Assembly (NCBI GenBank): GCA_951406725.2
Contig: OX597832.1
Coordinates: forward strand, 70,680,001-70,744,000
Reading direction: 5' to 3'
Source of the DNA: Octopus vulgaris
Lineage: Eukaryota
DNA length: 64,000 nucleotides
The notes under the pieces are model-generated. The model ran no database searches. It saw only the letters and a program-made list of their open reading frames with translations, and was not told the origin of the DNA. Below are positions 767 to 52,122 of the stretch, piece after piece. A program made the translations under genes and the position numbers. Each line of letters starts with the position of its first letter. Position 1 is the stretch's first letter.

Positions 767-822
767 CACACATATATATATATATACATACATATATATA
801 TATATAAACATATATATATATA
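440..822. repeat. (TA)n/(CA)n/(TACA)n microsatellite block
   Basis: Simple repeats are directly visible; the overlapping ORFs are low-complexity artefacts. Confidence 0.95.
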
Positions 823-1199
823 TACTCTTTTACTCTTTTACTTGTTTCAGTCATTTGACTGCGGCCATGCTTGAGCACCGCCTTTAGTCGAGCAAATCGA
901 CCCCGGGACTTATTCTTTGTAAGCCGAGTACTTATTCTATCGGTCTCTTTTGCCGAACCGCTAAGTGATGTGGACGTAAACACACCAGCATCGGTTGTCA
1001 AGCAATGCTAGGGGGACAAACACAGACACACAAACACATACACACACATACATATATACGACAGGCTTTTTTCAGTTTCCGTCTACCAAATCCACTCACA
1101 AGGCATTGGTCGGCCCGGGGCTATAGCAGAAGACACTTGCCCAAGATGCCACGCAGTTGGACTGAACCCGGAACCATGTGGTTGGTTAGCAAGCTACTT
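823..1199 (-). mobile_element. tRNA-derived SINE, body and 3' part of the split host copy 1
   Basis: Minus-strand B-box GGTTCAGTCC at 1159-1168 and a (TAAAAGAG)-type tail at about 823-845. The same family occurs uninterrupted from 36629. Confidence 0.85.
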
Positions 1200-3195
1200 T
1201 ATTTCATATGATTTGCCACTAGGGCAGTACAAAGAGTAGCTGCGGGATGGACAAAAACATTAATGAATGATGGTGATGGACGAAGATGGTGATGGGAGAA
1301 GACGAAAGCGCCCGCCGACTTTCGCTTCTCTAAGACATTGTTCTTTTTTTTCAAAGGTTTTACAAAAATTTCAAATTTTACAAATTTTACCAGAGGCAAT
1401 AAACCTCTTTTTCAATATAATACAATGCTCAGTAAGTCTATGTTACCCGGCCGACCAGCGCTCTTGCCTCAACGAGGCAATCATCGCTGGTCAGTTCGTG
1501 GTCTAGAGGTATAATTTGAAATGAGTCCATCGGGAAGGAACCCGTGATCCCGCCCAGATTACCCCTCCCTATGACCTCCGCAGCCAGCTGCGAAGGCCAC
1601 TCGGGGTCCTCCGTGCAGGACCGAAGTCCCTCCCAATGGCCCCGCTTTCTCATTTTACGTATTTCGCCCTCTACTATTCGTCCTTTAAAAAAGAGGACCA
1701 CAAATTGTTCCACAAATTGTTCCTCAGGCGGCTCACCCGCCTGAGAAGACTTGGGAGACGCTGCCTACGTGTTACAATCCGGCAGCGTCCCGTTTCTCTT
1801 TTTTCTTTTCTTCTTTTTACCTTGGGCCACGGGAGGTTGAGGTTCCGGAGTTGCACACACCGGGTTCTCTTCTTCTCCTGCAGCTTCCGGGTCTTTTGGT
1901 AGGTCGCCATTGCTCCCCACTTTTCTCTTTCTCGTTGAGGAAGTCGTCGCTTCCCTGCTCTGTTTCTCTCCCTCCATTGGGGGGCAGGGAGAGGCTCCGA
2001 TATCAACTGCTCCAGGAACCTACTTTGGTCCCTGGGGCAGTTTTTCTTAATATGGCCGGTCTCCAGGCACAGGTGACACTTGGGGAAGGGCGTCCCTCAA
2101 GCATCACCGGATAACTGTACCCGGCCATCATCAAAAAGTCCGGCAAAACCAGACTTTTGGCTGATTGGGTCCATAGGGTCAAAATAGCTTTTGAACCCTC
2201 CCAATCAGCCGCAGGCTGTACTTTCACATTTAGGAGCTGGGCGCTGCTACCACCCAGAACCCGGCGGATAGAGTCCTCTATCCACTCGGGTTCAACGCCG
2301 GGTGGTAAGCCGCAGATCCAAGCTCTCAACAATTTTTGTCCCTTATAATTAGGGAGGAACAGTATTTCCTTGCCCTCAATGGGCTTGCTTGCAAAGTCGC
2401 AAGCTGCTTTAGGGGAGTCAAACATCAACCAAACCGTTGCGTATTTGACTCCCCGTGAGACGTATTTAACGGCTGGCATATAGTCTGCCAGCTCGTTAAC
2501 AATAGTGGCCTTTGGAAAGACAGCTATGGTGTTGAGCGACTTTGAATAAGTCCTCAACACCACGGTCTTGTCCTCTAGCTCCTTCAGGTATCTTTTGGGA
2601 GGTGTTAACTCCCATATGGTAAATTCCTTTGCCATAACAAAAGTTTAAAACAGTTCAAAGTGACAAAATAAAATAGACAAAAAAAGGAGAATAAAAACAG
2701 AACAGAAGGGAAGAAACAAAATTCGAAACGGCAGTTCAAAAAAGTTTTTAAAAATAAAAATAGCAGAAGAGAGTTCAAAATCCAGGCAAAGGAATTAATT
2801 TTTTTTTTCTTTTTTCCCGGCCAAAAAGGTATTCCAGGCCACTGGTAATCCACTTGTGAAAATAATCCTTGGTACTCCGTTGGTAAATCCGAAGACAAAG
2901 GCAATTACACACGTTGGTTTTTGAGGTGGGGCTACGCCTCCTCAAAAAACACAATTCTCACTACAAAGTGAGTCTTTATACTTGACTACAGGCAGGAAAA
3001 ATGTCCGGAGCAGAGTGAAGTCTATTACCTGCTAAAAAATATTAAATGCTAGAAAACATTAAATGCAAGGCAATAAACCTCACTAAGCCCCCAAAAATAC
3101 AAAACGCCTACCTGTAGTCGAGTCAAAAGTTCAACAATTCACGTTGAAACACGTGACAACTGGAGCAGCAAAAAACCACGTCTGAACACGTCAGA
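1200..3195 (-). mobile_element. Non-autonomous ORF1-only Tx1-like retroelement, copy A
   Basis: About 2.0 kb and collinear with 7337-9320. Bounded by ggttagcaagctactt (1184-1199) and ggttagcgagctactt (3196-3211). No EN or RT coding sequence. Confidence 0.85.
1438..2635 (-). pseudogene. ORF1 (gag-like, CCHC zinc knuckle) of copy A, disrupted
   Basis: ORFs 2003..2635, 1765..1977 and 1438..1713 align consecutively to the 396-aa ORF at 7631..8821. There is a frameshift near 2085, a TAG at 1765-1767 and a 12-bp tandem duplication near 1698-1722. Confidence 0.88.
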
Positions 3196-3439
3196 GGTTA
3201 GCGAGCTACTTTATTTCATATAATTTGCCATTTAGGCATTTACAAAGAGGGGACAAACAAGGACAGACAAATATAAAGGGTGAAGTAGCTTAACACAGTT
3301 AAAATTTTCGAATGAAATTACGGGTAAGATTATAAACAATGAGTTTTACGAAGACAATGTTTAAAAATATTATTAATGATCATGTCGAAGGACGGACACC
3401 CAGCCATCCGGGTAGAACCTTTACTTTCTGATCTGGTCA

Positions 3440-4963
3440 CACTTACCTGGTGCCAAACATACCCAACTTGCATGCCACAAACATATCTCGTGACAGACAC
3501 CTCTTCTCCAGCCTGATTTTGCTACTGAGGTGGTAACTAAAAAAGTTAATCAACCGCTGGCCGGAGACAAAGGTGCCTGTCACTATAACTTTCGTACGCG
3601 TCTTCCATACTGTTTCTTTCAGTATGGCTACTACTCAGAAAAAACAAGCCTTTCTTTCCCTGTTAAGGAAAGGAGGCGGCACAATCTCGATGATAGACTC
3701 AGCTGATAGATGTACTCTTCCCATCACTGACAATAGTTGTTCAGCAAAAGCTATCAGTCCCGATAACTCCGGACACTCCACGAATGCGTGCAAGACGGTC
3801 TCCCTATCCTGCTCACATCGCGGGCATGTCGGCGAGACGGCACTACCGTGCCTTGACAGCTTGTCGCGAACAGGTAAAGCCGCACGGAAACACTGCCAGG
3901 CCAGGGATTTCTGGTAATTATCCAGATACCCCGGCCCGAACGTCCTCCGGAACAGGTTGACCAACTGATTTTCATCGTAGCCCAAGGTCTCCCCCAAGGC
4001 GTCTTCGGACTTAACCTCCACTAACCCGCTATAGAAATCCGTGGTGGAACTCCTGTTGCCGGCGTTGCCCACCCGAGAGAGTAGCTGGAGCGCCTAACGG
4101 CACTCCAAATGCCATTCACTCAGTTTAGGTCTCCGCTTGATCCATGCACCGATGTCCGTTAGGGATGTTAACTGGGGAAGGTAGAACCGGACGTGCGGTG
4201 ACCACACCTGCTCTCCATCCAGGTAAAGCCAGAGGTGCCTCAACCTTAACGCGAGTTTTCGCATCCTCAGCCAAGGCATCCCTAGCCCACCCTTTAGCGG
4301 TTTCTGGCAGCAGACAGAGCGCTTTACAAGTGGCTTTCCTCCTTTCCATAAAAATCGGAAAAGGATTCTCTCCAACTTGTTCAGCCACAAATCGGGGCAA
4401 GGCACCACGGTCAGACGGTAGGTGATTACTGATGCTATAAACATCTGCACCACCTCCGCCTTCCCTAGCAGGGATAACGCCCGCCCAGACCAGGTCTGGG
4501 CTAGAGCGGTCACCTTGTTGGCCACCTCACTCCAATTTTTCTCAATCTGGAGGTCTGGCTCGAACCAGACTCCGAGCAGCTTAACAGGACCTTCCGTCCA
4601 ACGCCCTACGATGTTATTGGACGGCATCGGCTTGCCCCTCCAGGTGCCGAGTTGCAAACCGACCGACTTGTCCTTGTTAACCTTTGCTCCTGCCACCGCC
4701 TCGTAGCTTTTGATGGCCTCTTCCACCACTGGAAGCTGGCCTTCGTCTGCCACGATGATGGAGGTGTCATCCGCATACGCCGTAGCTCCTCTTCCACACC
4801 ATAGATCATGCGGCGCGCCCCCTAGTGCCTCCAACTTCCGCAGCAAAGGCTCAAGAGCCAATACGTATAGGAGCGAGGACAGGGGACACCCTTGACGAAC
4901 TGAACGCTCGATCGTGAACGGCTTCGAAAAGAAACCGTTCACCTTGACTAGAACTGTGGACAA
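3440..4963 (-). pseudogene. ORF2 RT C-terminal half plus zinc-binding domain
   Basis: VKVNG...SVRQGCPLS...AYADD...KLLGV...GGLGMP...CPRCEQDRETVLHAFVEC, with in-frame stops at 4094-4096 and 3635-3637. The end coordinate is approximate. Confidence 0.9.
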
Positions 4964-5595
4964 CTAAAACTAGACCTATCTCTAGTTCTTATCACTATCC
5001 TGTCTAGATAAGACTTGAACCTTCCGTCGCCACTCATCCAGGTCCACTCTGGGACGTTCGGATGGTCAAGTCTGTAACGATCTGCCAGCTGAAACCGCTT
5101 AAGCAGATCCACGAGACGTGAGTTCACTTTCCTATAGATCGAGCCAACGCTATCGATGTGTACGTCAACGATAGCATTAAAGTCCCCTAATATCACTAAA
5201 GTCTTCGACGTCACGAGAAAGCCCTCTAGGCGCCGATAAAAATCAGTTTGGAAACAAGGTGCATAGAGTCCGATCAACCTGAAGGACTTACTGCTGTATG
5301 TCACATCAAGGACGACCAGCCCACCTTCTGGGTCTACATAGACTGTACTTGTCTGCAGAGCCAAGTCTTTACGGATCAGTACCACTACACCCCCTCGCCC
5401 TCCGGTCTGGCCAGGAGACATGATTTTCTCGTAGCCATTCAGGAGAGGCGAGAAGGTTTGTAGGCTGTCCAGCTTGGTCTCTGTAGCAACCATCACATGT
5501 ATATCATGTGATCTGATGTCGTCAAGGAAACAAGCCTGCTTCCACTTCGAACTCAGACCACGCACATTTAAACAACCAAGGTTAAGAGAAGCCAT
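4948..5595 (-). pseudogene. ORF2 apurinic-like endonuclease domain, truncated
   Basis: LNVRGL, ETK, GGVVVL, LYAP, LGDFN, LADRYR and SYLDRI motifs are present; the final SDH motif is lost at the deletion. Confidence 0.92.
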
Positions 5596-5612
5596 TACAA
5601 AAAGTAAAAGTT

Positions 5613-6945
5613 CTACTTACATTTCGTTGGAGAGGTTGGGGCCGACCTCACCACACATTGGTGGGCCCCTTCTTTCTCCTCCTTCTTCAGATAGTCCGGC
5701 AAGTTCGCGATATGCCGGATGGCGTTTGGTTGTCTGTCTTTTAATTGTTTGAACGTTGTTTCCGCGATCCACGCACATCTCTCGTTTCGATCTTTGTATT
5801 TGTTGTACAGTCTTGCTGACTGATGCGGAACCACAATATCGTTTATGTATTTGTTTTGTGTGTCGAATTCAATTAATATGAGTTCATTTTTTTGTCTTCT
5901 TTTTCTGGGCCAGTTGAGCGGGATTTTTTTTTTTCGTGTCTGTGGTGTGTCTTTGTTTTTATTATTTTTTGTAGGGGATGTGGACGGGGATGATGCACGA
6001 ATTCTTTTACGAACTGTTGTAAATCCCGCCTCTGATACCTCCATGGTATCGTCTGGGGTAGCAATAGTTTGTTCAGTAGGCGCCGCAGTTTTTAAGGGGT
6101 GGGAGGTTTTAATAATGTAGGGGTTTGTGAGTGCGAGGGCTGGGTTTTTTCTTCAGTTTGTTTTGGGGTTGGCACCGTAACAGCGGGAGTGGGATTTTTT
6201 GTTTTTGTAGGGGTAGGTGAGTTTGCAAGGGTAGGGATTTTTTTATTATCTGAGGGGCCTGGTGTCTGCGGTTTCTTTTGCTTGTCTGGACAGTCTACAC
6301 GAATATGGCCCTTTTTGCCGCAGGCGTAACAGGTGGGTTTTCGGCCTTCGACTTGTACCCTGAGGGCCACGTTCTCGCCCACGAGCACCCTCTCAGGAAG
6401 GAGCTGCAGGTCCTCCGGTGTTCCTTGAATTATTATATTAATGTCTCGCCCAAGCCAATATAGAGGGGCAGAGCATGTTACTTGTAGTATTTTAATTTTG
6501 TCCGTCCTTTTATATAACAGGGCGGCCACTACCTCTACCGGATCTACTTCCGGCGGGGCTTCTGCAATCCTGACCCGGGACGTCCTGCGTCCCCTATAGC
6601 TTGGGAAAAGTACACAATGTCCTTCCAAATCGGGGACAGGCATTTCTCGATGGTGTTTTTTTCAAAGTGTTTGAACCTTCTGCTTTGTGGACAGAAGGTT
6701 TTAAACACTACGGTCCGCTTCTCGGTCTCCACGATACTGGCGGAGGGTGATATTTTAACATCACCACCCTCCTCTTTCATTCTTTTAAATAGCTCGACGA
6801 GCTGATTGACATTGATGTCAATGTTCTCGGTAGCCACTGCGGCTACCGCAGAAAATTTTTTACTACAGTTAATATTGCTCTCCTCAAGAGCACTATTTTC
6901 GTGAATAATCTCAATAGACATTATTCTGTTGAAATTAGACAACAC
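5613..6945 (-). pseudogene. ORF1 of copy B, frameshifted
   Basis: Three overlapping frames (6544..6945, 6092..6643, 5613..6044) with a CYACGKKGHIRVDC knuckle and a Pro/Thr linker. Homologous by eye to ORF1 of copy C (EKRTVVFKTF vs EDKTVVLRTY; EGRKPTC vs EGRPPKC). Confidence 0.85.
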
Positions 6946-7336
6946 AAAAATTACGAATATTGGTTTCCCACAAAACTGGGAAACCTATAGAAAGTTTTTC
7001 TTCCAAAGCAGTTCAATAAGTGGTAAAAAGCAGTTCAAAAAATTTCATTTCCCACCCCCATTCGGGGGAGGGGCACGTAAATAGTCTGGCAAGACTATAT
7101 ATAGTCACGTAGATAAAAAAGCCACAATGGCTAACAGTTCAACAGTAACAAATTATCCAATTATTCCCCGGTAAAACCGGAGAACAAGACAGTTCAACAA
7201 CGTTCAAAAACAAATTTTCAGTAGTAAAATTCAACAATTAACAACACAGCAAAACTCTTACCGGGAAGAAAACGCGTCCAAACCGTAGTAAGGTAAGCAA
7301 AGTCACTCTTCAGTCAGTGAGGTAAGCGAGCTACTT

Positions 7337-9320
7337 TATTTCAACAATTTTGCCACTAGGGCAGCACACAGAGTAGCTACGGGCTGGACAAAGACATTAA
7401 TGGATGATGGTGGTGGTGGATGAAGATGGTGATGGGAGAAGTCAAAAAGCGCCCGCCGACTCTTGCTTCTCTAAAACAATGTTCTTTTTTTTTCCAATAA
7501 TTTTACAAAATTTCCAAAATTTTACAAAAATTCAAAAATTTCAAAACAAATTCCAAATTTTACAATTTACAATTTCAAAAGTTTTTCCAGAGGCAATAAA
7601 CCTCTATCGCAATATAACCCAAATACAGGTTCACGTTACCTGACCGATGAACGCTCTTGCTTTAATGACGCAATCGTTCTTCGTCAGGCCCCCGCATATA
7701 GGTATAACTTGCAAGAGATCCTCCGGGAAATAATTCTCGATCCTGCACATATCATTTTCGAGTAGGACCTCCGCAGCCAGCTGCGAAGGCCACTCGGGAT
7801 ACTCCATGCAGGACCGAAGTCCCTCCCATTGGTTTCTCTTCCTCATCTTACCTATTTCATTCTCTAGTGTACCTCCTTTGTGGAAGAGGACCACATAATA
7901 TTTCTCCGGCCCCACAACCGCCGGAGGACACATGGGAGACGCCGTCTGCGTGTTACAATCCGCTGGCGGCGTCCCGTTTCTTTTCTTTCTTTTTTTCTTT
8001 TTACCCTGGGCCACGGGAGGTTGAGGTACCGGCGTTGCACACGCCGGGTCCACTCTTTCTCCCGTAGCTTCCGGGTCTTTTAGTGGGTCACCATTGTTTC
8101 CCACTTTTCGTTTTCTTGTTGAGGAAGCCACCGCTTCCTCGTTCTGTTTCTCTCCCTCCATTGGTGGGACAGGGAGAGGCTCTGATATTAACTTCTCCAG
8201 GATCCTACTCTGGTCCCTGGGGCAGTTCTTCTTAATGTGGCCGGTCTCCAAACACAGGTGACACTTGGGGGGACGTCCCTCAAGCATCACCGGATACTTG
8301 AACCCGGCCATCCTCAAAAAGTCCGGCAAAACCAGATTCTTGGTTGACTGGGTCCATAGAGTCAAAGTAGCCTTTGACCCCTCCCAATCAGCCGCAGGCT
8401 GCATTCTTACGTTCAGGATCTTGGCGCTACCACCACTCAGACCCCGGCGGATAGAATCTTCCACCCACTCGGGCTCAAAGCCGGGTGGCAGGCCGCAGAC
8501 CCATAATCTTATTAATTTTTCTCCCTTGTAGCTTGGGAGAAACAAAATCTCTTCGCCCTCAATGGGCTTGCTTGCGAAATTGCAAGCTGCTTTAGGGGAG
8601 TCAAAAAGCAACCAAATCGTTGCGTATTTGGCTCCCCGTTGAATGTATTTAACGGCTGGCATATAGTCTGCCAGCTCGTTCATAATAGTGGCTTTCGGAA
8701 AAACCATTATGGTGTTGAGTGACTTTGAATACGTCCTCAACACCACGGTTTTGTCCTCCAGCTCCTTCAGGTAACCCTTCGGAGGTGTTAACTCCCATAT
8801 GGTTAACTCCTTTTTTGCCATAACAAAAGTCCAATAAAAAACACAATGACAGAACAGAAAGACAGAGCAGAGAAAAGGACGAAGGAAGACAGTTCAAATA
8901 ATGGCAACACTGTTCTGCAACTGGTAATCCTCACGAAACAGGGTACTCCAGTTGCAGCACACTTGGTTCTCCGTGGTAAATCCAAGCACAATTGGTTCTC
9001 CGTGTTAAATCCAAGCGAACAAATTAATTTTTGAGGAGGGGCTATGCCTCTCAAAACACACAATTCTCACTAAAAGGTGAGACAATAAATATGCCAACAG
9101 GCAGAACAAATACCTCCGAAGCAAAGTGAAGCCTGTTACGGGCAGAAAAGTGTTAACACTAATTAACATTAATGCCAAAAAGTATTAACGGCAAGCAACA
9201 AACCTCACTATGCTTCCAAAATATCCAAAATGTCCTACCTGTTTGCCGTAAATGTTCAATATTTCACGTTAACACGTGACATCTGAAGCAGCTCCAAAAA
9301 ACACGTCTAACTCAGACGAA
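7337..9320 (-). mobile_element. Non-autonomous ORF1-only Tx1-like retroelement, copy C
   Basis: About 2.0 kb between target copies at 7321-7336 and 9321-9336. It has one intact ORF and the same 3' end as copies A and B. Confidence 0.88.
7631..8821 (-). CDS. ORF1p-like nucleic-acid-binding protein, 396 aa (putative RRM-like region, CCHC knuckle, basic KKKKRKKR tract)
   Basis: Uninterrupted ORF with CHLCLETGHIKKNC; homologous to ORF1 of the adjacent Tx1 element. Confidence 0.85.
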   Translation of the reverse strand: MAKKELTIWELTPPKGYLKELEDKTVVLRTYSKSLNTIMVFPKATIMNELADYMPAVKYIQRGAKYATIWLLFDSPKAACNFASKPIEGEEILFLPSYKGEKLIRLWVCGLPPGFEPEWVEDSIRRGLSGGSAKILNVRMQPAADWEGSKATLTLWTQSTKNLVLPDFLRMAGFKYPVMLEGRPPKCHLCLETGHIKKNCPRDQSRILEKLISEPLPVPPMEGEKQNEEAVASSTRKRKVGNNGDPLKDPEATGERVDPACATPVPQPPVAQGKKKKRKKRNGTPPADCNTQTASPMCPPAVVGPEKYYVVLFHKGGTLENEIGKMRKRNQWEGLRSCMEYPEWPSQLAAEVLLENDMCRIENYFPEDLLQVIPICGGLTKNDCVIKARAFIGQVT

Positions 9321-9360
9321 GGTGAGAAAGCTACTTAGCACACAGCCACTCCTGCGCCTA
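9321..9360 (-). mobile_element. 5' head (A-box) of the split SINE copy 1
   Basis: Minus strand reads TAGGCGCAGGAGTGGCTGTGTGCTAAGTAG, matching the head of the uninterrupted copy at 36629 (TAGGTGCAGGTGTGGCTGTGTGGTAA). It continues the SINE broken at 1199. Confidence 0.85.
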
Positions 9361-49855: not shown

Positions 49856-49886
<31 letters not shown>

Positions 49887-49887
49887 T

Positions 49888-50031
49888 ATACGACGGTCTT
49901 CTTTCAGTTTCCGTCTACCAAATCTACCCACAAGGCTTTGGTCGGTCCGAGGCTATAGTAGGAGAAACTTGCCAAAGGTGCCACGCAGTGGGACTGATCC
50001 CAGAACCATGTGGTTGGTAAGCAAGCTACTT
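49888..50031 (-). mobile_element. tRNA-SINE host copy 2, B-box side
   Basis: Collinear with 1056-1199. Confidence 0.85.
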
Positions 50032-52082
50032 TATTTCATAATATTCGTCATGTAGACAGTACAAAGATTGTGTAGCTTTGCGGGCCGGACAAACACATTA
50101 ATGAATGAAATTGAAATAAAATGAATAAATGAGAGACGAAACCCAACACTCGCTGATTGGATTTTTCTCGAAAACATATTTTCTTTTTTCTTTAAATCAT
50201 AATGAGGTTTCAAACCTCTTACAAGAAGGAGGCACTAAAACCTCTTACTTAACACGTTTGTTTTAATACACACAAATGATGTAATAAACCACTACAAATA
50301 ATACAATAAGATGAGGTTTCAAACCCTCTAACGAGGCCTTTTCGCTTCCTACTCATTGATATATCCATCGATATATTCCTCATTATTTTCAATGCCGCTT
50401 GAGTTCCTGTATCCTTCCATTTCACATGCTTCACTCATGTAGGACATGTAAGTCGTGTAAGGGCCACCCGGCCATATGCGACACTCTTTCCCAAATCCTT
50501 TAAGCCTTTCTCACAAGGGAAACCTTATGACCTCCACAGCTATCTGCGGAGGCCATTCAGGACCTCGTGTGAATGGCATATCTACTATCTCTTTATGTTC
50601 TTCTACTATTTTTCCACCTCCATACCCTTGTAGAAAAAGATAATTAATTCATCATCTTTAAAAGTGGGGGTCGTTTCTTCCACCGCGGTGACACAACTTC
50701 GGGACATGCAGACGGTACATCATCTCCCCGCTGCGATGACCCGTTCTTCTTTCTTTTTTTCTCTTTTCTTCCTGACTTCGGGAGAGTGGAGCTCTTCCGC
50801 TTTGTCCGGAGTCTCTCCCCCACCTCCCGAAGTCTTAGGGTCCTTCGGCAGGCAACTATTGTTACCCGCCTACTTCCTTTTTTCACATCCACCTCTCCCT
50901 TTGACCGGGTAGGGGAGGTGACAGTTCCGGGACCTTACCATGGTCCTGAGAGCAGTTCTTTTTAATGTGGCCTGGCTGAAGGCACGAGTGGCACTTGGGG
51001 GGACGTCCCTCAAGTATCGCCGAATACCTGCAGCCAGCCATTTAAAAAAATCTGGAAAAACCAGATCTGTTGCGGCCGTCGGGGTCTACAGGGTCAAAAT
51101 CGCTTTTGACCCTTCCCAATCGAACGCTGGCAATACCCTTACATTTAAGAGCCTTGACCCGCTATCCCCCAGTCCCCGTCGGATGGTATCTTCAATCCAA
51201 CCCGCGTCGGTGTCTGGGGGTAACCTACATACCCAGGCTCTTATTAATTTTCTCCCGCACTACGACGAGACGAACAGAATTTTGTTGCACGCTAATGGCT
51301 GACTCGCAAATGTTTGAGCCTTTTCCCGGTCGTCAAACAGCAACCATACGGTTTCATGTTTGACACCTCGGGATATGTATTTCACTGAGGACAAATAGTC
51401 TTTCGGTTCATTTTCTATAACTGGTTTTGGGAAGACGGTGATGGAATCAAGAACTTTAGAATAAGTTCTAACCACCATCGTCCTCTTCTCCATATCTGTT
51501 AACCACTGCTTAGATGGGTTAATTTCCCACTCTAAGACAGAGTTCTTCTTTTTAAGTTCCTTCTCTGCCATGTCCCAAAAAACAGTTAAAAAGTAGTTCA
51601 AAAATCAGTCCGCAAAAAAATTAAAACCGAATAAAAATAGAATTAAAACAAAATAAAAGAGAAGGAAAGGAAACTGAAGTTCAAATAATGAAAAGAATGA
51701 ACCAAAATTTAGAAAGAAAGAAAAAATAGAAGGAGAAAATAAAAGAAAAACCTCACAAATAGAACAGACAGGGAATCCTTTGTATAATACTCCAACAGGT
51801 AATCCAGTAGTGTCGGTTATTCTTGAAGTACTCCAGGTAAATTTCGACTTTTTCTAGTGAGATACGCCCACTAGAATTTACAAATTATTTGGCGAAAAAA
51901 AGCCACACCAAAAATTCTCAATTCTCCGTTATGGTGATGAGAACACAATATTTTTGCTCGCTATAGCGAGCCATAATTGACAATTTTTCTTTTTGTTCTT
52001 TTTTCTATTCACGGAGCCAAAACTCACGTCTTCTCACTGTAACAGTCCAGACCAACTAGTGTTGCATTCTGGGTAACCGGAA
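50032..52082 (-). mobile_element. Non-autonomous ORF1-only Tx1-like retroelement, copy D (diverged subfamily)
   Basis: Flanked by a perfect 15-bp duplication gtaagcaagctactt (50017-50031 and 52083-52097). It carries an ORF1 homologue and the shared 3' end. Confidence 0.88.
50440..51571 (-). pseudogene. ORF1 of copy D, disrupted
   Basis: MAEKEL...MVVRTYSKVLDSITVFPK...VKYISRGVK, a stop at 51260, PKCHSCLQPGHIKKNC at about 50953-51000 and PEWPPQIAVEV at about 50530-50562. The end is approximate. Confidence 0.85.
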
Positions 52083-52122
52083 GTAAGCAAGCTACTTAAT
52101 ACACTGCCACTTCTGCACCTAT
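52083..52122 (-). mobile_element. 5' head (A-box) of split SINE copy 2
   Basis: Minus strand reads ATAGGTGCAGAAGTGGCAGTGTATTAAGTAGCTTGCTTAC. Confidence 0.8.

Follow-up and report, generated by a model that had tools for sequence, protein, structure and literature searches.

A young LINE of the L1/Tx1 type in Octopus vulgaris, here called family A, and partner elements that encode only ORF1 very probably insert at one position of a tRNA-like SINE, in the orientation of the SINE, with the 16-base target site likely rebuilt from a copy at the 5′ tip of the element RNA. Target choice, co-orientation and arrays of mixed families are directly visible in the genomic copies.

Two interrupted SINEs and their contents

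The window, meaning the whole 64,000-nucleotide stretch of DNA that was analysed, contains a SINE whose B-box (1159-1168) and A-box-like stretch (9338-9348), both on the minus strand, are separated by three elements, E1, E2 and E3, that share the strand of the SINE (Table 1). The initial annotation had described such a split, and it is seen as described. The 16-mers placed at the four junctions were located with the letters given, at 1184, 3196, 7321 and 9321, although they are not one and the same sequence, differing by 1-3 bases in pairwise comparison. At up to three mismatches, the window has six matches to the 16-mer, versus 0.28 expected from shuffles. The last letters of junction 3 are those of the family-A tip except for one. 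A second SINE, absent from the initial annotation, is interrupted at the identical position by a further ORF1-only element (50016-52097). A repeat finder applied to the entire window gave output swamped by microsatellites.

Table 1. Positions of the two interrupted SINEs, their junctions and the inserted elements
Feature	Position	Strand	Basis
SINE 3′ part: B-box, body and short-repeat tail, inside an (AT)n tract	820..1183	-	sequence and other window copies
Junction 1: the SINE's own 16-mer, unbroken into its 3′ part	1184..1199	-	
E1, ORF1-only, non-autonomous, 1,996 bp	1200..3195	-	
Junction 2: 16-mer variant that E1-type copies elsewhere (L123, L131, L140) also have as their 5′ end	3196..3211	-	
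E2, a copy of family A (the autonomous family)	3212..7320	-	
Junction 3: 16-mer, first 12 letters as in junction 2	7321..7336	-	
E3, ORF1-only, 1,984 bp	7337..9320	-	
Junction 4: 16-mer variant found three times in one C7 array	9321..9336	-	
SINE 5′ head including the A-box-like stretch (9338-9348)	9337..9360	-	aligns colinearly with tRNA genes
Second split SINE, 3′ part and own 16-mer (50016-50031)	49884..50031	-	
E4, ORF1-only, different subfamily, 2,050 bp, ORF1 broken	50032..52081	-	
Second split SINE, 5′ 16-mer (52082-52097; 15/16 match to the 3′ one) and head	52082..52121	-	

The target SINE is about 400 bp long and non-coding, with a simple-repeat tail and 89,215 exact sites. Its head has an A- and a B-box, and its best alignments to the tRNA genes of this genome reach z values of 4-5 over shuffles; neither Rfam nor ARAGORN called it as a tRNA. 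Named octopus SINEs include OK, OR1, OR2 and Twinkle.

The reading of the insert as a three-element array stands, with the amendment that endonuclease and reverse transcriptase (RT) are confined to the middle element and the outer two are ORF1-only partners. Matches to Pfam Exo_endo_phos (5595-4948), RVT_1 (4963-4094) and zf-RVT (4093-3635) occur only in E2. This copy is damaged: its ORF1, beginning at 6921, is spread over three frames, and it has a 1.2-kb internal deletion near 4940-4950 as well as frame breaks. A whole family A element measures 5.44 kb. Elsewhere in the genome the family is intact, with many copies at 97-99% identity that have an open ORF2 of 1,140-1,150 amino acids. For example, L082 has an open ORF2 of 1,133 amino acids, and L081 has a separate ORF1 of 467 amino acids with a zf-CCHC knuckle. 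E1 and E3 are 78% alike, and E2 is unrelated to both apart from the tail. Each of the two encodes an ORF1 with one CCHC knuckle; that of E1 starts at 2635 and has a frameshift near 2000-2096, and that of E3 is open (8821-7631, 396 amino acids).

A search for a remnant of ORF2 in the ORF1-only elements found none. Copies of about 2 kb with both ends present occur at many loci, indicating that they moved as such units. The ORF1 of the outer two elements is under purifying selection; among three open ORF1-only copies, dN/dS is 0.16-0.24 up to the knuckle and 0.47-0.60 beyond it. These elements have a CCHC-type ORF1 that is 26-27% identical to those of octopod families A and B. Because the identity to family A, the likely driver, is only 26%, the ORF1-only elements are not recent deletion products of it. 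In this genome, family A has its nearest relative in family B (ORF2 67% identical), which is located in (TC)n tracts.

One SINE position is the target

That this family uses a SINE as its target had been proposed from the window, and the flanks of genomic copies bear it out. Fifty family A loci were located by 3′ end or RT protein, and all 44 distinct copies (44/44) lie on the SINE target. A query with the 3′ end of E1, without flank, placed 29 of its 30 best matches, all ORF1-only, at the same position; the next feature downstream is the SINE in 20 and another element in 8. Among exact tail matches on C1-C3 (n = 41), 38 are on target, one is inverted at the same site and two are without an upstream element. 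Exact junctions of tail plus target number 1,015, versus 0 for the reversed control. Genome-wide, there are approximately 1,000-1,300 occupied junctions, versus 89,215 empty exact SINE sites. One locus, L012, has 12 target letters with unrelated sequence beyond them. Another, L023, was considered as off-target and rejected, as the SINE head is present at its 5′ end. The tRNA genes themselves do not appear to be targets: in 20 sampled of 34 listed (Lys, Thr, Arg, Ala, Cys, Glu and one unlabelled, with no Gly gene among them), the 16-mer was absent at up to four mismatches. None of these 20 was identified as the parent of the SINE head.

Family A sits in the SINE variant equal to its own tip at 34/50 loci, versus 31,728/89,215 sites overall, with the copies counted being non-independent. 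SINE age, chromatin or the endonuclease could be other causes of this preference.

Origin of the 5′ 16-mer and of the arrays

Where does the 16-mer at the 5′ end come from? The site is probably rebuilt, as the initial annotation had supposed, but a plain duplication of 16 bp does not account for this: in the 5′ copy, the distal part is carried by the element. Full-length family A copies have the same four final letters at their 5′ junctions in 37/37 cases. At solo loci with a differing 3′ copy, the 5′ copy has the element's letters in 11/11 and those of the local SINE in 0, and 10/28 solo junctions are 17 long. Family-specific 5′ tips reappear at unrelated loci, including one 15-base tip at 7/18 E3-type 5′ ends, and 3′ 16-mers co-vary with the subfamily letters of the downstream SINE. 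It would be improbable, then, that the 16-mers are all ordinary target-site duplications with later point changes behind their differences, even though the final four letters are equal at both ends in 17/28 solo family A copies and a truncated copy, L133, duplicates 14 local bases. The rebuilt site is lost in 5′-truncated copies, whose duplications are only about 1-14 bases (n = 8), the seven other than L133 having 10 or fewer. At L136, L128 and L111, rare letters of the local target occur early in the 16-mer and are copied to both ends. For a possible replacement of the 3′ 16-mer by read-through RNA, the counts are 8/33 versus 1/6. Searches for ribozyme families at the 5′ ends of L083, L132 and L103 (E up to 5) gave no match, a result that diverged ribozymes can escape. 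A still less probable explanation is that the SINE halves belong to the elements and travel along with them, with no targeting at all. Almost all copies do have the SINE head upstream and the SINE body downstream, and of 12 E3-type copies two have a rare head letter in common, so that part of the upstream flank may also be carried along. Against this, 5′-truncated copies of 55-750 bp directly adjoin the SINE head (L102, L133, L143, L157), and hence the halves are not fixed ends of the element. Moreover, the heads vary, and the flanking SINE parts come from different subfamilies and are more divergent than the elements. To judge by these junctions, each element likely brings along a copy of the target sequence, which would restore the site for the next arrival.

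Stacking by regeneration of the site had also been proposed, and recurrent arrays elsewhere agree with it: arrays with mixed families are also present on other chromosomes, and the largest count is 17 junctions in 42 kb. For one large array, on C7, the 3′ SINE half was not found in the stretch examined, down to 13,433,500. The least probable of the alternatives is that misassembly produced the array in the window. Of 24 listed runs, all of short contigs and none recorded as RNA, four were compared with the stretch; none crosses it, and no listed joint skips the array. However, the three units differ in sequence, with E1 and E3 only 78% alike and E2 unrelated past the tail; the junctions differ among themselves; and similar arrays exist on other chromosomes. 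Regeneration is nevertheless not a sufficient cause of arrays. Together with random site choice it predicts almost no loci with four or more units (0.005-0.2), whereas at least three were seen, so regeneration alone cannot explain them. Likewise, the 8/30 ORF1-only copies with an element downstream compare with 3-10% expected. A looser junction search on C1 shows another element next in only about 2-4 of its first 100 matches; the stacking excess is therefore a trait of full-length, mostly ORF1-only copies rather than of all insertions. Both excesses, as well as the recombinant middle copy of a trimer on C9, would fit an origin of arrays mainly from single events, either RT jumps from one 5′ tip to the 3′ end of the next RNA or two-unit read-through RNAs, with unequal crossover. 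We regard this as a possibility to be taken seriously but not the favored one. Internal junctions at L136 and L128 contain rare local target letters, which require insertion at that locus, and neighboring units differ in family and age. A similar pair is found at L137 and L139, but the upstream copies are 91% and 78% identical to E1. Single events and repeated insertion at a rebuilt site are mutually compatible, and both re-targeting and unequal crossover are seen to contribute to the arrays.

Proposed mechanism and implications

For insertion into a SINE site that is rebuilt from the element, the following steps can be proposed. The family A endonuclease would nick the bottom strand immediately ahead of the 16-mer, and reverse transcription would be primed there. 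The element RNA probably extends into the downstream 16-mer, because AATAAA lies across tail and target and there is no poly(A) at the junction; such an RNA could base-pair with the primer. Top-strand cleavage would follow, up to about 14-16 bases further along, and the cDNA end, a copy of the RNA 5′ tip, would anneal to the top-strand overhang. After replacement of mismatched end bases, second-strand synthesis would be primed, along the lines suggested for R2. Both the 5′ tip and the read-through of the RNA are inferred from DNA junctions. The ORF1-only elements have the 3′ tail in common with family A and are likely mobilized in trans by an ORF2 of the family A type. Further insertions at junctions already present, together with unequal crossover, would enlarge the arrays, with occupied sites likely preferred over empty ones. 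A broader scheme is more tentative and, in our judgment, rather doubtful. With the target 16-mer at both ends of the RNA, base pairing, and not the endonuclease alone, might pick the SINE variant and seal both junctions, and the same redundancy might lead to RT jumps between RNAs. The ORF1-only elements might then be HeT-A-like partners on the arrays, in which case a dead SINE would house interstitial head-to-tail arrays, tens of kb long, built by a parasite of a parasite.

What are the implications? A tRNA-like SINE is a new target class for sequence-specific LINEs, offering some 90,000 dispensable sites, and the target has switched between the SINE site and (TC)n within a single octopod radiation. 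The copies provide natural-experiment evidence on 5′-end joining and second-strand priming, an open step for LINEs, in an APE-type element; target variants serve as markers, so that RNA-derived letters can be recognized. Open ORF1 and ORF2 frames exist in copies that are 98-99% identical, which puts tests of the endonuclease and of the joining step within reach. The system is also a candidate where insertion at a repeated site has to be precise and full-length. There is also a caution, namely that apparent target duplications may be partly element-borne.

Classification and comparison with known systems

Family A belongs to the L1/Tx1 group. Its ORF2 has an N-terminal APE endonuclease, an RT and a C-terminal CCHC finger, and among characterized non-LTR proteins it is closest to L1, matching human L1 ORF2p at E 5.5e-67 and R2 at 7e-20. 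The only retroelement endonucleases matched were L1 and L1 chimeras. Homologue searches and a cluster look-up for a named Tx1 protein brought up none, and Atlas matches carry only the names of domain families. An RT tree, built without named reference families, gives an octopod group including an Argonauta protein with support of 100/99. Membership of the Tx1 clade is likely, a label drawn from architecture. Oriented, sequence-specific insertion into a multicopy target, which is typical of Tx1 but not universal in it, is found here (44/44, 29/30, 38/41). The elements also inherit target sequence at their 5′ end, a trait of R2-type 5′ joining (11/11 informative loci).

It is already known that Tx1 elements aim at other transposons and stack. 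Tx1-Mar and SINEU-3 of crocodilians and Tx1L of Xenopus are described as Tx1-type LINEs and non-autonomous partners with an abundant transposon as target, and SINEU-3 has a 16-base duplication and tandem copies that sandwich it, interpreted as sequential insertion (PMC4494074). Those elements aim at DNA transposons or LTR elements, whereas the target in octopus is a tRNA-like SINE cut between the A- and B-box, and the octopus non-autonomous partners, unlike those, encode ORF1. The available portion of PMC4494074 mentions no element-borne 5′ target copy for these systems. A literature search found no precedent for such a copy or for a SINE target, although the supplement of that paper may hold further Tx1 targets. 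Kibi, Koshi, Keno and Dewa are sequence-specific Tx1 families with multicopy targets (PMC4494074, PMC3706591), and these are microsatellites, U2 genes and tRNA-array spacers, rather than the SINE of family A; octopus family B, in (TC)n tracts, resembles Kibi.

For R2, RNA with upstream 28S sequence is proposed to anneal to the target, giving uniform 5′ junctions, which are variable without such sequence (PMC3774820). Full-length and truncated copies in octopus show the same contrast. Differences are that R2 has a single ORF, an endonuclease of the restriction-like type and an HDV-like ribozyme, whereas family A has two ORFs, an APE endonuclease, dispersed SINE targets and no match to a ribozyme. 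In HAL1 (half-L1), a non-autonomous element, ORF1 is the sole product (PMC5753468). The octopus ORF1-only elements, with an ORF1 that stands alone, is kept by selection and moved as such, work like HAL1. They are not HAL1 proper, which is mammalian and L1-derived, as theirs is a CCHC-type ORF1 with relatives in octopod families A and B; they also differ from it in being site-specific and array-forming. Dada elements occupy fixed sites in tRNA and snRNA genes and form tandems, and Dada-tA swaps target letters upon insertion (PMC3706591); they differ from the octopus elements in being DNA transposons, in entering real RNA genes and in having 6-7-base duplications. At Drosophila telomeres, the Gag-only HeT-A and the autonomous TART/TAHRE form head-to-tail arrays, and their 5′ ends have tags of upstream sequence (bioRxiv 10.1101/782904). 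These elements are of the Jockey clade, at chromosome ends, with a host function, whereas the octopus arrays are interstitial, with endonuclease-type junctions and no host function shown.

A SINE as the target of a LINE family

The insertion system is real, genome-wide and site-specific. In the 2.8-Gb genome searched (227 contigs; the window sits on C19), a query of 131 bases of the 3′ end of the window element E1, without flank, gave 40 scored matches. Thirty were fetched: the target comes next in 29, leading on to the SINE body in 20 and to another element's 5′ end in eight; in the single exception, a SINE head lies at the 5′ end. The autonomous family A, sought through its 3′ end (30 loci) and its RT protein (20 loci), is on target at all 44 distinct loci, with the SINE next in 38. 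These counts bear out the proposal of the initial annotation that elements insert at one SINE position. Genome-wide, 181 sites match an 18-base tail pattern (control 4); all 41 on C1–C3 were traced, with 38 on target, one inverted at the same near-palindromic site and two with no element sequence upstream. Inverted element tails at this near-palindrome were noted at L155 and L142. The tail-plus-target junction occurs in exact form 1,015 times (control 0), and 1,721 matches fit a looser pattern (control 468). Set against 89,215 intact sites genome-wide (27-base pattern spanning the site; control 0), this means that ~1%–2% of sites are filled. ORF2 is open over 1,140–1,150 codons in many family A copies, at 97%–99% identity, and the family is therefore young.

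The insertion point lies between the A-box and B-box of the SINE, whose head is colinear with the genome's own tRNA genes (alignment z 4–5). True tRNA genes, suggested as possible carriers of the 16-mer, lack it in all 20 sampled (of 34 listed; no Gly).

The window locus

The 16-mer matches six times in the window versus 0.28 by chance. The array had been described as three Tx1 elements splitting one SINE, with an identical 16-mer at all four junctions. The order and the shared orientation with the SINE stand. Endonuclease and RT plus zf-RVT matches occur in E2 only, which is damaged (1.2 kb missing, frame breaks), and the four 16-mers differ from one another by 1–3 bases. In E1, E3 and E4 the sole ORF is an ORF1 that bears a single CCHC knuckle, and none of the three shows any trace of ORF2. 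As a lead only, Atlas look-alikes of the E3 ORF1 (7634–8821) include ZCCHC3-like proteins (score 0.90).

Target-site features in the window and arrays in a small sample
Feature	Location	Strand	Length or elements	Remarks
SINE head	9360–9337	minus		array start
16-mer, junction 4	9321	minus		
E3	7337–9320	minus	1,984 bp	
16-mer, junction 3	7321	minus		
E2	3212–7320	minus	4,109 bp	
16-mer, junction 2	3196	minus		
E1	1200–3195	minus	1,996 bp	
16-mer, junction 1	1184	minus		then SINE 3′ part
Second split SINE	50016–52097			holds E4, flanked by the two extra 16-mer matches
Array	window		3	
Array	C9		3	
Array	C13		at least 3	
Array	C16		4	
Array	C7 at 72.87 Mb		at least 4	
Array	C7:13.456–13.498 Mb			one SINE head followed by 17 target junctions; families mixed, with deletions and other RT lineages

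That the SINE halves belong to the element ends, a reading that the initial annotation had left open, does not hold. Truncated copies of ~55, 160, 740 and 745 bp abut the SINE head with their 5′ ends (L143, L133, L157, L102), and the flanking SINE parts fall into several subfamilies. The 3′ 16-mer co-varies with subfamily letters downstream (11 + 14 concordant, six mixed one way, none the other way, one unread). Of 12 E3-type copies preceded by a SINE head, two (window 9337–9339; C7:13,498,283) have in common a rare head letter, present in just 477 heads across the genome; upstream flank may at times move with the element. At L103, an antisense tRNA-Ser copy (5834–5915; Rfam 59 bits) lies at the 5′ junction of a family A element, and the whole target SINE is apparently doubled, with a copy on either side.

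Origin of the 5′ site copy

Does each insertion regenerate the site, as was proposed? Full-length copies restore it; truncated copies fail to, and the 5′ copy is partly element-borne. Judged from the DNA junctions, the 16-mers are more than plain duplications. Among 39 family A copies with both ends, 37 were parsed (the pattern dropped L144 and L154), and all 37 have identical last four letters at the 5′ junction. The 3′ 16-mer differs there in 11 of 28 solo copies, and the 5′ copy matches the element at all 11; 15 of the loci drawn on had been picked for variant 3′ sites. Ten of the 28 solo junctions are one base too long, as would result from out-of-register annealing. The tips of ORF1-only subfamilies are distinct: one form, of 15 bases, occurs at seven of 18 E3-type 5′ ends, and at L122, L124, L129 and L134 regardless of the local SINE; the junction 2 form recurs at the 5′ ends of L123, L131 and L140, and the junction 4 form three times on C7. 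Counting against an element-borne tip, junction 3 in the window is one letter off that of family A, and no ribozyme match was found at element 5′ ends (L083, L132, L103; E up to 5). The 16-mer can begin with letters of local origin: at L136, L128 and L111, rare local letters stand at both ends. Eight truncated copies duplicate about 1, 1, 1, 3, 3, 10, 10 and 14 bases; thus, complete restoration of the site requires arrival of the element's 5′ end. Family A prefers the SINE variant equal to its own tip (34/50 versus 35.6%; p 3e-6 if copies were independent). A second, decayed target copy lies just inside the element 5′ end at L160 (C7:13,456,212 and 13,460,470), L148 and L118, as though successive tips had been layered on.

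Stacking

If sites were chosen at random, each insertion adding one, 0.25–4 loci with at least three elements would be expected, and 0.005–0.2 with at least four. At least three of the latter were seen; several arrays were examined because a tandem was already visible. The idea that regeneration allows stacking holds for the existence of arrays and repeat insertion, but random re-use does not account for their number. ORF1-only partners stack far above chance: another element lies downstream of eight of 30 copies (p 1e-6 to 8e-3, depending on the null), but of only ~2–4 of the first 100 matches to the looser junction pattern on C1. Repeat insertion is shown by a rare local letter copied into an internal junction (L136, L128), and unequal crossover by the recombinant middle copy of the C9 trimer, whose 5′ end is 99.3% identical to the third copy and whose 3′ end is 99.2% identical to the first. 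A preference for filled sites might stem from template jumps, from co-transcription, or from tail-plus-site being the better substrate. Separately, L1/Tx1-type elements from many families, all in one orientation, occupy ~70 kb (G000:C7:13,433,500–13,502,499; L159–L164, L123) within and beyond the 17-junction array; this stretch could be a trap or piRNA-cluster-like locus.

Partners and relatives

Three open partner ORF1 copies have dN/dS of 0.16–0.24 up to the knuckle. Partner and family A ORF1 are just 26% identical, which marks the partners as an old lineage. The partners have the family A 3′ tail, and we infer that A-type ORF2 moves them in trans. Human L1 ORF2p is nearest to family A ORF2 among solved structures, and an Argonauta hians protein is its nearest named relative, which, together with the repeat landscape, points to an octopus genome. 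In a tree with no named Tx1, families A and B and four more RTs from the genome group with the Argonauta protein (100/99); from its ORF architecture, we take family A to be likely of the Tx1 clade. Family B, a close relative (67% ORF2 identity), inserts in (TC)n tracts (L096–L100; five loci read, three being one duplicated region). The three, on C29, share flanks, as segmental duplicates beside a ~100-bp satellite.

A second abundant SINE-like repeat (L023, L089, L126, L128, L133, L137 and others) has a 26-base stretch in common with the family A 3′ UTR, and its last 24 bases in common with other RT families here; it was thus likely moved by these families. Often, the same 11 letters of its own kind come next, a hint of a second site preference.

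Relation to known systems

We found no account in the literature of a LINE targeting a SINE, nor of the present system in cephalopods; Repbase, Dfam, most subscription papers and the PMC4494074 supplement fall outside that scope and may hold the target. Mollusc and octopus repeat papers list L1-Tx1 families or SINEs, with no target in the portions consulted (PMC13282606, which counts 13 recently active L1-Tx1 families; PMC8967140; PMC4758252). HAL1 is defined in PMC5753468 and Dada described in PMC3706591. What appears new is the SINE as target, the presence in an APE-type LINE of an element-borne 5′ site copy, and the stacking of ORF1-only partners well beyond chance expectation. Comparable systems include Tx1 families that aim at transposons and SINEU-3 in tandem around a 16-base duplication (PMC4494074), the R2 model for 5′ joining (PMC3774820), and the arrays and tags of HeT-A (10.1101/782904).
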